DNA of 64,000 nt from Botryllus schlosseri (GCA_051294905.1 CM119371.1:7938001-8002000), one strand, 5' to 3'. Numbered from the stretch's first letter, positions 1,523-20,833 are shown. The notes: generated from the sequence alone by a model not told the origin. Program-made: numbers and translations.

Positions 1523-1736
1523 AGTAGTATATAAGTGCTCATCCAGTTCCGCTCCAATCACATCGCAGCATTTGATCACGTGACTACTTTTGAATTTCAA
1601 ATCAAACAGAGAAAAGCGCGCGAAAGAGTTATATCAATAGTGCTTCAATAGGGACAATGGGTGACAATATATGTCAATAACGGGCGTGACCGTCATTGTA
1701 TTGACAATGATTGTGTCAGCTGATTGTATAATGGGG
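1523..1736 (+). repeat. Left terminal inverted repeat of the Polinton (214 bp)
   Basis: Reverse complement of 20620-20833, with one mismatch seen by eye (CGTGACCG vs CGTAACCG). Confidence 0.97.
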
Positions 1737-1825
1737 GTTAATGGGTAATCACGTGACAAATTTGTAATTATATATTTTTTTAGCATCACTACAAATCATT
1801 CTTATTCCTATATATATATATATGT

Positions 1826-2143
1826 ATGTCGCTTATGAGATTATACCATCAAAGAAATCAAGGATTGCAATTGACAGAGATGTCGAGAATTACAGCTTCT
1901 GATGTATACGACATTATAGAGAGGGTTCATTACAAGACTTGGAAAAGATTTGCTCGAGATCAACTTAAGTTAACAGACTTAGAAATTGCTGATTGTGAAT
2001 ACGCGGATCCCAAGAACTTAACTGAACAATGTTATCAAATGATACAAATATGGCTTCGTAAAAATGGTCGATGTGCTACAATTGACAGACTCGATGAATT
2101 AGCTAATAGTTGTATGTACGATTGTACTACCACACGGAATTAG
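1826..2143 (+). CDS. Death-domain-only protein
   Basis: WKRFARDQLKLTDLEIADCE..P.NL.EQCYQMIQIW..KNG..ATIDRL fits the death-domain consensus (W..LAR.L.L....I..I....P..L.EQ..QML..W....G..AT...L). Confidence 0.88.
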   Translation: MSLMRLYHQRNQGLQLTEMSRITASDVYDIIERVHYKTWKRFARDQLKLTDLEIADCEYADPKNLTEQCYQMIQIWLRKNGRCATIDRLDELANSCMYDCTTTRN

Positions 2144-2278
2144 CTCGAGAAGAAAAATGAGAACAGTCCATTTGATTTACCGTTATCAGATTTGAATGTC
2201 TCAATGAGTTTACCGTTGGGAATTAACGCGCCAAAAGTAGTTATTTAAACACCACTACGAGTGAGCGGGACATGAGAA

Positions 2279-2446
2279 ATGGATATACTTTTGAGTGAAG
2301 ACTCCGATATCGCGTTCTACGTGATATTATGCTCTTGCATTAAAACCTATTGCTGCAGCAATATATACAAGAAGAAAAGAGATTCCGAGATTGCAGAAGC
2401 TTGCAACGACCTTAAAGCTGCTATCTGTAAAGTCTTCGGGCAATGA
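2279..2446 (+). CDS. Small Cys-containing hypothetical protein (55 aa, MDILLSEDSDIAF...KVFGQ)
   Basis: ORF read manually (below the track cutoff); its TGA overlaps the next ATG (ATGA at 2443-2446). Confidence 0.4.
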   Translation: MDILLSEDSDIAFYVILCSCIKTYCCSNIYKKKRDSEIAEACNDLKAAICKVFGQ

Positions 2447-2640
2447 AGCTAATATTCATAATATTCTTATTGATGCTAAATTGGAAATCAGCGGATGCTC
2501 CGGAATTAATATACCCTTTCACCGTGAAATATCATGAAGAGGACTGCATAGCTACTGAGCAAGAAGCAATGAAATTGATTTTACGTTATATCGCGGCATA
2601 TTCTTTGACTAACTGTACGCATATTGAAATAAACTATTGA
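2443..2640 (+). CDS. Small putative secreted protein
   Basis: N-terminal signal-peptide-like MKLIFIIFLLMLNWKSADA; ATG coupled to the upstream stop. Confidence 0.5.
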   Translation: MKLIFIIFLLMLNWKSADAPELIYPFTVKYHEEDCIATEQEAMKLILRYIAAYSLTNCTHIEINY

Positions 2641-2849
2641 ATGATGATTTGCATTGTATTGACTCGACTTTGTTAGGTTGTGCTTTCAGTGCCATATAGT
2701 GCTGCTATAGCTTCGTGGTTCTGCTACAATTTTACTAACACTAAAGCTTTGAGAATAGAGAGAGACACAAATGTAGGATGAGATTTTATTATTCAGACCA
2801 AATATGAATTTACCATTTATTTTCCATTAACACATATTAAACCAGTAAT

Positions 2850-3434
2850 TTAAAATTGCTGAGAATTTTGCATCCACCCCGCAGGGCGATGTCCGTATTG
2901 AGGTGGTGGTGGTGGCGGTGGTACGCCAGCATTCATTCCGTAATAGGCGTTTTGTGGTGCTGCATTCATGCCATTAGTAGCGAAGTTCGCTTGAGGATGA
3001 TCTTTTGATTGGATTTGTCCCGATTCTGCGATGAAGCGAGATGTTTCCTCCAGAATGAACGATAGCGGACCACAGTCAGGATCCTGTACCACATTACCTA
3101 TATAAAGATATAGTTTATTAGTACAGAATTTCATTAGATATTTACAATCTAACATACTTGGAGAATAAATTGTAAATTCGTCTGCTGGGTTAATCTGCTG
3201 GAAACATTCAGCACCATCACGAGTATAGGTCGCAACGAGTCCACCTTTGTGCGTGAAGACGGCTTTGTATCGCTGAATGGCGCCTGAAGTACGATGTAAG
3301 CGCAATTGATGATGATCAATTACATCATCATTTATGCTTTCAAGTCGTAGCTTCGATATGTTATTAAAAACATATAGCTCTTTCCTCAATGGACCGCCGA
3401 CAATTCTACTATCACCTCTTATTGCGATGCTCAT
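2850..3434 (-). CDS. Hypothetical protein with low-complexity C-terminus and polyproline/PPxY motif
   Basis: 194-aa ORF; C-terminal PPPPPPPQY; AATAAA downstream on the minus strand near 2785-2790. Confidence 0.7.
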   Translation of the reverse strand: MSIAIRGDSRIVGGPLRKELYVFNNISKLRLESINDDVIDHHQLRLHRTSGAIQRYKAVFTHKGGLVATYTRDGAECFQQINPADEFTIYSPSMLDCKYLMKFCTNKLYLYIGNVVQDPDCGPLSFILEETSRFIAESGQIQSKDHPQANFATNGMNAAPQNAYYGMNAGVPPPPPPPQYGHRPAGWMQNSQQF

Positions 3435-3512
3435 ATTGATTCTAAATTAATATAGAAAACACAATATAGTTATTATTCAGTGAAAACATGAATCCACACA
3501 CGAGAAAATAGA

Positions 3513-18683: not shown

Positions 18684-18767
18684 TTTGATATGTCTGTAAT
18701 AAAATCGCAAAACAACTACGGCTCCTCATTCGTGTTCTAGTCAGATACAGCATCAATAGAAAAGTCG

Positions 18768-18838
18768 TGGAGACTACGGGAATTGAACCCGTATCTTCTA
18801 TTTGCAAGACAGATACTCTACCATTGAGCTAAGTCCCC
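18768..18838 (-). tRNA. trnA: tRNA-Ala(UGC) encoded inside the Polinton
   Basis: Folds by hand into a full cloverleaf: acceptor GGGGACT/AGTCTCC with G3:U70, D-stem GCTC/GAGT, anticodon stem TCTGT/ATAGA with loop CT-TGC-AA, T-arm ACGGG-TTCAATT-CCCGT, discriminator A; TTTT terminator 4 nt downstream. Confidence 0.93.
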
Positions 18839-18948
18839 ATTCAGACGAATAACAACGCAACCAGACGTTGATTTTTTATTATTTATTACAAGAACAATAC
18901 GGAATGTATAATGCAATTCCACGCTACTCGCGGTGGATTAAAACAACA

Positions 18949-19428
18949 CTATTTTTCTTGCTGGGTGACTTGCGTATCTTCCATTGCATGTCTACGGGTA
19001 TATTGAGTAGCTAGTTGGAAATAACGTTCCTTATTTTTTAAATACATTTCCGCACTCTCTTGATCCATCGGATCATAAGGGTTTGGTGAAGCGAGCAATG
19101 AACGTATTGATATCAGAAGAGTGGACGTTGTCATCGCTGGTGACCATTCCTTCTGTAAAATATCGACACATATGGTACCTTTACAGCTTACGTTAGGATG
19201 GAATATCCGTGTTTCAAATCGCATTTTAGGAGGCTTGAATGGATACTCGGTAGAATATTCGATTGATAATCTGAACACACCACCTTCGTAGGGCGTTCCG
19301 TTTGGTCCTTGGATCGTTGCCCACCAACTATACATATTCTTTTCATCGAATGGTCCTGCTCGGATACCTTCGTAAGCATTCTGCTTAAATTTTGCTTGTT
19401 CATATATCAAACGCTTCAAAGCACGCAT
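18949..19428 (-). CDS. Ubiquitin-conjugating enzyme E2 (UBE2D/Ubc4-like)
   Basis: ALKRL, W.ATI.GP.GTPYEGGVF, YPFKPPK, FHPNV...G.ICVDIL..EWSPA; catalytic Cys intact; likely start MRALKRL at 19428. Confidence 0.96.
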   Translation of the reverse strand: MRALKRLIYEQAKFKQNAYEGIRAGPFDEKNMYSWWATIQGPNGTPYEGGVFRLSIEYSTEYPFKPPKMRFETRIFHPNVSCKGTICVDILQKEWSPAMTTSTLLISIRSLLASPNPYDPMDQESAEMYLKNKERYFQLATQYTRRHAMEDTQVTQQEK

Positions 19429-19593
19429 GCCTATCGAATGATAGTATTCGAACTGTCGCACTTGCTTTCAAATAAACTATAATTCAATCTAATTATACAT
19501 GTAAATAGAAATAGGTTACAGAATAATGAATGATATGATTAATGTATGAAATGACATACGTCGCGCATTTCAAATCTACAACAAAAAAATATA

Positions 19594-19920
19594 TTAATGT
19601 ATGAGATGAGATGCGTCGCTCATTTCTAATCTGTAACAATTTCCCATAAATAGGCTGTTTAATTCCACGGCGGTTCCTTGTTTGATAGTAATACACTTTC
19701 CATTTATGCGGACATCTTCCTCATGAATCTTCATTGATTTTTTTTCGTTGTCTTCGTCACGTATGATCACCCACGTATATCCTTTACGGCGTTTTATTAT
19801 GAACTGCTGCTCAAATTTTATCGTCGCTACACCCGTTACTATTATACTCTTTGAAGTTTGGTCCATTGTAATATTTGTTGGAGATTCGAATTTGACATCG
19901 TTAATCACTATTCTTCCCAT
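19594..19920 (-). CDS. Hypothetical beta-rich protein
   Basis: 108-aa ATG ORF, weakly similar to 18342-18683. Confidence 0.6.
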   Translation of the reverse strand: MGRIVINDVKFESPTNITMDQTSKSIIVTGVATIKFEQQFIIKRRKGYTWVIIRDEDNEKKSMKIHEEDVRINGKCITIKQGTAVELNSLFMGNCYRLEMSDASHLIH

Positions 19921-20619
19921 CGTCGCTCAATTTCGTATTGAATGGCTTAGCATCAAATTTGTGACTTAAATAGTTCCCTAAACTTCTTCTACAATCATTG
20001 TCAATACAATGATGATCACACCATCGCGGAATAAACATATATATATGATCGCAAACTTGTCACGTGATCAAAGCTATGTATGGTGCAATATCGCTAGGTT
20101 ATTACCCATTGTGCAATAACGGTCACACAACTCTTTCGCGCGCTTTTCTCTGTTTGATTTGAAATTTCAAAAGTGGTCACGTGATTGGAGTCGGTCTAAA
20201 TACCCACTTTGACACGTTAATCAAAACAACAGCAACGAAGGCTAGGCGAGATGGGCAGAAGACTGCAAATCCTGAACAATGGAGGGTGTAACACCAGAAC
20301 GAGCGAAAATATACTTCGAACATTTGGACAAGCACTGGGAGAGGAACTGGGATGGAGCTTGCGATGGGATGGCTGTATAGGAATAATCGGACTGTATATA
20401 GGAATAAGAATGATTTGTAGTGATGCTAAAAAAATATATAATTGCAAATTTGGTACGTGATCAAAGCTGTGTATGGTGTAATATCACTAGCTTTGGACTT
20501 GTCTACGGTATTAACCATTGCACAATACCGTAACGTTCGCTAGCACACACCCCATTATGCTGTCACGGTTCGCTCTCCTAACCCACACCCATTAACACCC
20601 ATTATGCAATCAGCTGACA

Positions 20620-20833
20620 CCCCATTATACAATCAGCTGACACAATCATTGTCAATACAATGACGGTTACGCCCGTTATTGACATATATTGTCACCCATT
20701 GTCCCTATTGAAGCACTATTGATATAACTCTTTCGCGCGCTTTTCTCTGTTTGATTTGAAATTCAAAAGTAGTCACGTGATCAAATGCTGCGATGTGATT
20801 GGAGCGGAACTGGATGAGCACTTATATACTACT
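20620..20833 (-). repeat. Right terminal inverted repeat of the Polinton
   Basis: Reverse complement of 1523-1736. Confidence 0.97.

Follow-up and report, generated by a model that had tools for sequence, protein, structure and literature searches.

A coding-intact Polinton of Botryllus schlosseri with an accessory gene set that may act on host cell-death and ubiquitin signalling

Introduction

Few virus-like elements are as widespread in animals as Polintons, and the functions of their accessory genes are almost unknown. A 64,000-nucleotide stretch of Botryllus schlosseri DNA (GCA_051294905.1, CM119371.1:7938001-8002000; the whole stretch is called the window here, and all positions are counted from its first letter) raises this question at a single locus. 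At 1523-20833 it contains an element of the Polinton/Maverick (adintovirus-like) type, 19,311 bases long, whose arms encode a death-domain (DD) protein, a BIR protein, a metacaspase-like peptidase of family C14, a ubiquitin-conjugating enzyme (E2) and a transfer RNA (tRNA). Do these genes act on the host cell, do they serve the element's own cycle, or are they passengers without a role?

The analysis identifies a Polinton whose coding capacity is intact. It belongs to a lineage that has been sampled sparsely, and its accessory set is unusual and coherent. Its four small intronless genes point to one pathway family, that of death-domain signalling, inhibitor of apoptosis proteins (IAPs), caspase-family proteases and ubiquitin conjugation, and on balance we consider it probable that, during expression of the element, the accessory genes in the arms act on cell-death and ubiquitin signalling of the host.

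Boundaries and layout of the element

The ends of the element are delimited by the following features:

1517 to 1522: left target-site duplication (TSD), CAGGGT
1523 to 1814: left terminal inverted repeat (TIR), with a 214-nt core at 1523-1736 and a second block at 1748-1814
20395 to 20833: right TIR, with a block at 20395-20461, additional repeats and a 214-nt core at 20620-20833
20834 to 20839: right TSD, CAGGGT

An inverted-repeat search of the window returned the two TIR cores at 1523-1736 and 20620-20833, 214 nt each, and direct comparison of the arms gave 213/214 complementary positions, the sole mismatch lying at 1688. The second pair of inverted arms (1748-1814 and 20395-20461) is 67 nt long and 96% matched, and the right end holds additional internal repeats. 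The TSD is identical at 6/6 positions, a match with a chance of ~1 in 4096. Long TIRs flanked by a 6-bp duplication, as found here, are characteristic of Polintons; no further copy or fragment of the element was found elsewhere in the 64-kb window.

Between these ends lie 20 open reading frames (ORFs), which make the element 79.5% coding. The DD and BIR genes stand to the left of the PolB gene, and the C14 gene, the tRNA and the E2 gene to the right of the capsid and protease genes. The first-pass annotation, made from the sequence alone, had proposed a Polinton with perfect TSDs and centrally placed core genes, a DD-only and a BIR-only protein in the left arm, and a C14 peptidase, a tRNA and an E2 in the right. 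The first part is borne out by the TIR match, the two CAGGGT copies and the gene order, and the distribution of cargo over the arms by the Pfam, ARAGORN and Rfam results. The element is best explained as a recently integrated, adintovirus-like one of the divergent-polymerase (pPolB2/Beta) kind.

Accessory genes in the two arms

The accessory genes on which the proposed role turns are these:

1826 to 2143, plus strand: death-domain-only protein, 105 aa, FADD-DD-like (Pfam Death, 2.9e-10)
3513 to 3866, minus strand: single-BIR protein, 117 aa, no RING (Pfam BIR, 5.7e-11)
17516 to 18256, plus strand: metacaspase-like C14 peptidase, 246 aa, no prodomain (Pfam Peptidase_C14, 1e-12)
18767 to 18838, minus strand: tRNA-Ala(UGC) (ARAGORN; Rfam 73.4 bits against a gathering score of 29)
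18949 to 19428, minus strand: UBE2D-like E2, 159 aa (Pfam UQ_con, 4.3e-47)

Twenty-two ORFs were scanned against Pfam, of which 6 matched families at E <= 0.01, with every score above the curated cut-off. The DD, BIR, C14 and E2 genes are all intronless and complete, with the catalytic residues of C14 and E2 and the zinc residues of the BIR intact, and judged by their sequence they look functional.

The death-domain protein is hardly more than the domain itself. Its Death score (40.6 bits against a cut-off of 22.6) places it in the DD subfamily, and its best solved relatives are the DD of FADD (2.2e-6), followed by TNFR1 and RIPK1. The BIR protein scores 43.2 bits against a Pfam cut-off of 22.9 and keeps the IAP zinc site, C-x2-C-x16-H-x6-C, intact at residues 78-105 by regular-expression match, with NAIP, XIAP BIR2 and DIAP1 as best solved relatives. 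A RING E3 domain is present in many, not all, IAPs; none is found in these 117 aa with their one BIR, and the protein resembles BIR-only proteins.

The E2 reaches 159.7 bits with UQ_con and matches UBE2D2 at 1.9e-45, and it has the features of the UBE2D/UBC4-5 type, with HPN at residue 77 and the catalytic cysteine in TICVD. It is about half identical to UBE2D2 (our own count of the alignment) and 44-48% identical to six E2s from giant-virus contigs, where 7/10 pattern stretches were confirmed; its similarity to the giant-virus enzymes is no closer than that to cellular UBE2D. This divergence points to a long separate evolution in which the active site was preserved. Poly(A) signals AATAAA lie at 18887 and 18880.

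The tRNA-Ala is the only tRNA of the 64-kb window and carries the G3:U70 identity pair of tRNA-Ala, with a TTTT run 5 nt past its 3' end (both noted by eye). In the region 18684-18950 it occupies the 190-bp gap between convergent poly(A) signals, at 18698 on the plus strand and 18887/18880 on the minus strand, the plus-strand signal being that of the unit which C14 may form with orf113. Among the alanine codons of the element's ORFs, GCA and GCG make up 132/270.

The C14 peptidase and its relatives

The best solved relatives of the C14 protein are the plant metacaspases 4 and 9 and the bacterial homologue GSU0716, and animal caspases are not among the matches listed; for these two reasons the word metacaspase, used by the first-pass annotation, is a fair one. 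The His/Cys dyad expected of the family, H79 and C131, is invariant in 14/14 aligned relatives. Among 201 candidates, 4 proved to be sisters, with 88, 63, 51 and 50% identity, and 71 columns are invariant across the window protein and these 4, H79 and C131 included. By this alignment C14 is under constraint, with its dyad kept down to 50% identity.

The clade formed by the Polinton proteins has its own active-site surroundings, reading FVGHG and AQCYSG (residues 129-134) against YSGHG and D[CS]CHSG in canonical short relatives; the string AQC of the window protein and its close sisters, SQC or AEC in two of them, stands against canonical D[SC]C. A profile of the five C14 sequences matched 4639 proteins at E <= 0.001 and 248 at E <= 1e-10 among 1.84 billion representatives. 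In the 10 clusters looked up, the named members are protist transcriptome entries, in three clusters, and one 'hypothetical protein'.

Wider relatives are plentiful in viral contigs. With an alignment of five canonical short relatives, 349/581 pattern stretches in IMG/VR encode a relative, and about half of the 80 IMG/VR loci kept bear the name of a giant-virus metagenome-assembled genome (MAG), by our own count. Compared with these 80 loci the window protein gives 40 match rows at E <= 1e-3, the best at 26% identity over 243 residues (1e-13), full length. Judged by similarity, the wider relatives of C14 are short metacaspases common in giant-virus contigs. A FastTree phylogeny of 170 rows gives good support to the Polinton clade (96 for five rows, 99 with P0017), which sits on a long branch without a specific sister, and the giant-virus rows are interleaved with others (20 label changes), so that no donor can be named.

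Two IMG/VR contigs under one giant-virus MAG name (L037 and L081) hold a short metacaspase and a UBE2D-like E2 46% identical to the window E2, and the pairing of the two genes is therefore not unique to the element. Within the element, the C14 gene directly follows the block of capsid and protease genes.

Copies of the element in other sequencing runs

Twenty runs from 12 studies contain part of 15000-24000, under five coded organism labels and one 'marine metagenome', and none of these 20 is on record as RNA. Four runs (X6, X8, X22 and X24) were compared with the element over 1400-20950 in 30 bins. Coverage reaches 30/30 bins at ~98-99.7% identity with contigs from X6 (organism B) and from X8 (a further sample of organism A), and all cargo genes and the tRNA are present in these near-identical copies. 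Examples from X6 are record 6 (14804-18658, 11 differences), record 7 (18681-19741, 3 differences) and record 1 (2809-4732, 32 differences). In X8 one contig has a different flank directly before 1523, which indicates that the element occurs at more than one site and that its end falls exactly at the start of the repeat.

Inside cargo ORFs, the listed differences in length preserve the frame; they are a 6-nt deletion in the proline run of orf194 and a replacement of 219 nt by 21 nt (198 net) in orf529. Codon classes, which rest on the 40/283 base differences listed, give synonymous/non-synonymous counts of 1/2 for DD, 3/1 for BIR, 3/3 for orf194, 2/8 for orf529 and 1/0 for E2. The sub-terminal region between TIR core and DD start (1591-1825) varies, with 233 nt represented by 29 nt in X6 and 112 nt by 34 nt in X8.

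Searches for more distant elements confirmed 0/16 and 0/3 pattern stretches for the major capsid protein (MCP) and PolB as single queries in IMG/VR, and 0/592 and 0/33 for the C14 alignment and PolB in metagenome contigs. Retention of the cargo is seen in near-identical copies and, at the protein level, for C14.

Transcription

In X24, a single-cell RNA run of organism A, 59 reads fell on the element, in 11/30 bins, among 22.2 million records (~3% of the run). Their orientation is consistent with the gene map: 8/8 bins over plus-strand genes point one way, and 3/3 bins over the minus-strand right arm and the right end point the opposite way, a pattern that argues for transcripts rather than DNA carry-over. 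The assignment of sense rests on general knowledge of 3'-tag library chemistry. Immediately upstream of the E2 AATAAA, at 18352-19655, there are minus-sense reads. The deepest bins cover the end of orf529 together with orf136 (5964-7267, with the highest depth at 5964-6615) and the end of PolB (10528-11179), the latter adjoined by an AATAAA at 10772. Predicted TATA and AATAAA sites suggest candidate transcription units for DD, for BIR with orf194, for C14 with orf113 and for orf108 with E2.

Two checks proposed with the first-pass annotation, namely whether sister elements keep the cargo and whether it appears in RNA data, have come out partly in its favour: near-identical copies in X6 and X8 and the protein sisters of C14 speak for retention, and reads were seen over the E2 region as well as over some other genes, with none over C14 or BIR.

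Core genes

The genes that identify the element as a Polinton occupy its centre:

6885 to 10751, plus strand: putative PolB, 1288-aa ORF (Exo I-III and Pol A-C motif strings)
10780 to 11400, plus strand: A32/FtsK-type packaging ATPase (Pfam Pox_A32, 2.2e-9)
12291 to 13295, plus strand: retrovirus-like integrase with a C-terminal chromodomain (Pfam rve 8.8e-13, Chromo 3.8e-11)
13452 to 15028, plus strand: two paralogous penton-like (minor capsid) genes, 276 and 249 aa (mutual blastp 5e-5)
15423 to 16700, plus strand: double-jelly-roll (DJR) MCP, 425 aa (protein atlas and homologue search)
16697 to 17158, plus strand: adenain/Ulp1-like cysteine protease, 153 aa (weak match to pS273R of African swine fever virus, ASFV, 0.025)

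The integrase is of the rve kind found in Polintons (48.8 bits against a cut-off of 32.6), and its Chromo domain, at residues 294-332, agrees with the Adintoviridae as described in the available part of Buck et al. (2024, PMC11071296). The MCP is linked by an Atlas score of 0.98 to the cluster of the C. elegans Maverick gene F54H12.2, which has DJR-like domains; 10 relatives were found among 4920 candidates, of which two without names are 71% and 47% identical, and the nearest named one, a limpet protein with the UniRef name 'Major capsid protein', is 29% identical. The two ORFs before the MCP are arranged in tandem and overlap (13452-14282 and 14279-15028), and their position and paralogy suggest putative pentons, or minor capsid proteins; duplicate Pentons are mentioned for a few adintoviruses in the available part of Buck et al. 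(2024, PMC11071296). The protease has H52 and C102, as expected for its family. The capsid, ATPase and protease set of a Polinton is present, with a weak protease match and a positional penton call, and a PHROG search returned nothing for the protease, the ATPase, the MCP or the two penton-like ORFs.

PolB gave no polymerase match in sequence searches of Pfam, PHROG or PDB. Its motif patterns Exo I-III and Pol A-C, written from general knowledge of the consensus, are colinear at residues 363, 483, 613, 717, 1018 and 1118. An endonuclease-like insert at residues ~797-871, between Pol A and Pol B, received two independent sub-threshold endonuclease matches (Pfam MTES_1575, 0.0034, and phrog_13076 'endonuclease', 0.0029), and a PDB search of the region returned nothing; on its sequence, the insert fits the pPolB2 subgroup with a VSR endonuclease insert. 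At residue 196 the string DNLCLFR is what we take to be an OTU-like Cys-loop, and an OTU domain at residues 139-325 had no match in Pfam or PDB. A weak C2H2 zinc finger lies near residues 294-316.

Other open reading frames and the flank

The remaining ORFs of the element are listed below:

2443 to 2640, plus strand: 65-aa ORF with a hydrophobic N-terminus, which may not be a gene
2850 to 3434, minus strand: orf194, 194 aa, no family, C-terminal poly-Pro and PPxY
4543 to 6132, plus strand: orf529, 529 aa, no family, upstream of PolB, fast-changing
6293 to 6703, plus strand: orf136, 136 aa
11436 to 12303, plus strand: two small basic ORFs, 101 and 154 aa
15006 to 15377, plus strand: 123-aa basic Gly/Arg-rich ORF, core-protein-like
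17131 to 17451, plus strand: 106-aa ORF
18342 to 18683, plus strand: orf113, 113 aa
19594 to 19920, minus strand: orf108, 108 aa

For 14 ORFs without a family, Pfam at E <= 5 gave only sub-threshold noise. The protein of orf194 ends in PPPPPPPQY, with PPQY at residue 177, and this PPxY motif could, as no more than a lead, recruit WW-domain (NEDD4-type) ubiquitin ligases; no usable match was found for it in Pfam, PDB or the protein Atlas, and none for orf529 in Pfam or PDB. AlphaFold2 models made without an alignment were discarded as unusable for both orf194 (mean score in the predicted local distance difference test, pLDDT, 36.1) and the C-terminal 300 aa of orf529 (mean pLDDT 30.1). Both the X6 and the X8 copies have one extra base each at 15324, close to where the 123-aa ORF ends, and at 15393, in the spacer that precedes the MCP gene, so that the C-terminal tail of this ORF is read differently between copies.

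Outside the element, remnants of a Gypsy-type long terminal repeat (LTR) retroelement with several broken frames lie at 25400-29850 on the minus strand (RVT_1, RT_RNaseH, Integrase_H2C2, rve), and the ORFs of at least 90 aa in 20900-64000 gave LTR-retroelement domains only.

Proposed role and rival explanations

If the cargo acts on the host, each gene has a plausible part in it. Truncated FADD that consists of the DD only is dominant-negative, and the DD-only protein could likewise be a decoy that occupies receptor or adaptor death domains and relays no signal. Like viral and cellular IAPs, the single-BIR protein would bind to caspases or to antagonists of IAPs; the UBE2D-like E2 might supply ubiquitin to host RING ligases and alter the fate of signalling proteins; the metacaspase-like protease may cleave host or viral proteins; and the tRNA-Ala would supplement translation. 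The first-pass annotation had spoken of a genuine virus with a host-manipulation module. The analysis agrees with that annotation on the anatomy of the element; virus status and host manipulation, together with the biochemical activities, the direction of the effect (anti- or pro-death) and the production of particles, are matters that we infer.

Several observations weigh against an action of the cargo on host signalling. The C14 clade has lost the aspartate two residues before the catalytic cysteine, a residue that helps to set Arg/Lys specificity in metacaspases, as known from work on TbMCA2 and Yca1. Without this acidic S1 feature the protein is called metacaspase-like and is given no assigned specificity, and its substrate preference may differ from that of ordinary metacaspases. 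It also has no recruitment prodomain, be it DD, DED or CARD. Retention at depth is seen for C14 only: the DD protein had no word-sharing homologue among proteins of 57-184 aa, and 0/4 pattern stretches were confirmed as BIR relatives in IMG/VR viral contigs. The variant counts listed between copies are too few for any selection test. In X24, no reads fell over BIR and orf194 (2704-4007) or over 13788-18351, which includes C14; those at 2410-2470 lie beyond the DD ORF, over the start of the 65-aa ORF, and are not assignable to DD; and 31/59 are only 95-99% alike and may stem from other copies. X22, an RNA run of organism B, had 0 reads on the element and was counted as no test.

One rival explanation, distinctly unlikely in our view, is that the cargo works for the replication cycle of the element itself and not for control of host cell death. 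C14 would then be an enzyme that processes proteins of the virion or of replication; the E2 would attach ubiquitin to viral or chromatin proteins; the tRNA would raise translation; and DD and BIR would be interaction modules for assembly or localisation. The place of C14 behind the capsid-protease block, the TATA-to-poly(A) unit that it may share with orf113 and its lack of a death-fold prodomain suit this explanation, as does the statement, in the available part of a review, that the roles of giant-virus metacaspases are unclear and that their cleavage may mature viral proteins in algal viruses (PMC10583209). The element, however, already has an adenain-like maturation protease, and DD and BIR domains are familiar from proteins that work in signalling and cell death, with FADD, TNFR1, RIPK1, XIAP and DIAP1 as the best solved relatives here. 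A low probability likewise attaches to the cargo being passengers, that is, host or foreign genes recently picked up, evolving neutrally and without a role. Polintons do pick up and move cargo (Widen et al., 2023, as cited in the available part of PMC11131425), the DD gene has no detectable sister, and orf529 is fast-changing, with its 2 synonymous and 8 non-synonymous differences. Passengers would nevertheless not be expected to be intronless and complete in all four cases with catalytic and zinc residues kept, to show a C14 dyad invariant down to 50% identity, to include an E2 that shares about half its residues with UBE2D2 and 44-48% with the giant-virus enzymes and has its active site preserved, or to have sense reads over that E2.

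Very unlikely, in turn, is that the four genes form a pro-death switch, for suicide or abortive infection, instead of an anti-death kit. The DD adaptor and the caspase-family protease would trigger death, restrained by the BIR protein and by ubiquitination, and could kill superinfected or stressed cells in the manner of the Polinton- or virophage-like defence of hosts against giant viruses. The composition of the set, which joins a protease and an adaptor to a brake (BIR) and a ubiquitin enzyme, would suit such a switch, and wider relatives of C14 are common in giant-virus contigs (349/581; ~25% identity, E 1e-13); yet C14 offers no DD, DED or CARD through which a DD adaptor could recruit it, and no giant virus of animals is implied by any result. 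An action of the accessory genes on host cell-death and ubiquitin signalling is the reading that we prefer to these three.

A more far-reaching version of the preferred reading is that the element is a 19-kb active virus with a self-contained cell-death module, comprising the first viral DD-only decoy, a BIR protein, an E2 and a metacaspase from the giant-virus/protist pool. We regard it as unlikely. It would mean gene flow between giant viruses and animal Polintons, and it would mean that small integrating viruses manipulate apoptosis/NF-kB-type signalling as large DNA viruses do. The metacaspase-like gene also connects a Polinton of an animal with a family of proteins that abounds in marine giant viruses.

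Comparison with known systems

Whether the gene combination is new was also considered, the first-pass annotation having held that it had not been described. Full-text searches, which covered few subscription journals, found no literature that connects a death domain, a caspase or a metacaspase with Polintons or adintoviruses, and none that names an E2 as their cargo. Polinton together with 'ubiquitin-conjugating' led only to a mirusvirus paper, and together with 'caspase' only to unrelated papers, as far as titles and abstracts tell, and a term search did not meet the cargo terms in the available parts of a paper about polintoviruses of stony corals and of a preprint from 2026 that treats small DNA viruses of eukaryotes. 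IAP and Bcl2 homologues, however, have already been reported in adintoviruses (Starrett et al., 2021, PMC8502044, as far as available). The novelty is thereby reduced but not removed: an IAP is known cargo, and DD, C14 and E2 cargo were not found in the literature searched. The part of the Starrett et al. supplement covered contains 'IAP' twice and 'Bcl2' three times and does not contain 'caspase', 'death', 'ubiquitin' or 'ubc', and the available part of Buck et al. (2024, PMC11071296) has anti-apoptotic genes in mammal-associated species and no 'caspase', 'death domain' or 'ubiquitin'.

The element resembles Polintons and adintoviruses in its TIRs, 6-bp TSD, putative protein-primed PolB, rve integrase with a C-terminal chromodomain, A32/FtsK ATPase, DJR capsid, penton-like genes, adenain-like protease and accessory genes upstream of PolB. 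It differs from adintoviruses in adding a DD-only gene, a metacaspase-like C14, a UBE2D-like E2 and a tRNA-Ala, and in a capsid only 29% identical to the nearest named relative. With those pPolB2 Polintons of marine molluscs and of one marine nematode that have a VSR insert (Jeong et al., 2023, PMC10748475, as far as available) it shares a polymerase that Pfam does not recognise, a marine setting and an endonuclease-like insert between Pol A and Pol B, the insert matches of the element being sub-threshold (E 0.003); by term search, tRNA, apoptosis, accessory genes and cargo do not come up in the available part of that paper.

The closest printed idea found concerns the Burro giant Gypsy retrotransposons of planarians, whose BIR, BCL2-like and TRAF/MATH domains were proposed to meddle in host apoptosis and ubiquitination (Arkhipova and Yushenova, 2019, PMC6431247, as far as available). 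Burro, like the present element, is a mobile element with apoptosis domains; unlike it, Burro is a retroelement with the domains inside one polyprotein, whereas the element is DNA virus-like and has separate genes.

Viral decoys that consist of a death fold only include the DED proteins called vFLIP, the ranavirus vCARD and the pyrin-only proteins of poxviruses. The protein described here is likewise small, with a single death fold, and differs in belonging to the DD subfamily, with the FADD DD as nearest solved structure. We know of no viral DD-only decoy, and this one would fill the sole death-fold subfamily for which no viral mimic is known to us.

The same kinds of gene occur in large DNA viruses, namely the IAPs of baculoviruses, entomopoxviruses and ASFV, the ASFV E2 pI215L, the ascovirus caspase and the metacaspases of giant viruses; metacaspases, the ascovirus caspase and the ASFV E2 are treated in the available part of a review (PMC10583209). 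In contrast to those viruses, the element has a BIR protein without a RING and a C14 clade on a separate long branch with an altered active-site neighbourhood, and it brings this cargo together in 19 kb of integrating DNA instead of a genome of at least 100 kb. If the proposed functions hold, it would follow the same strategy of host control as baculoviruses, poxviruses and ASFV.

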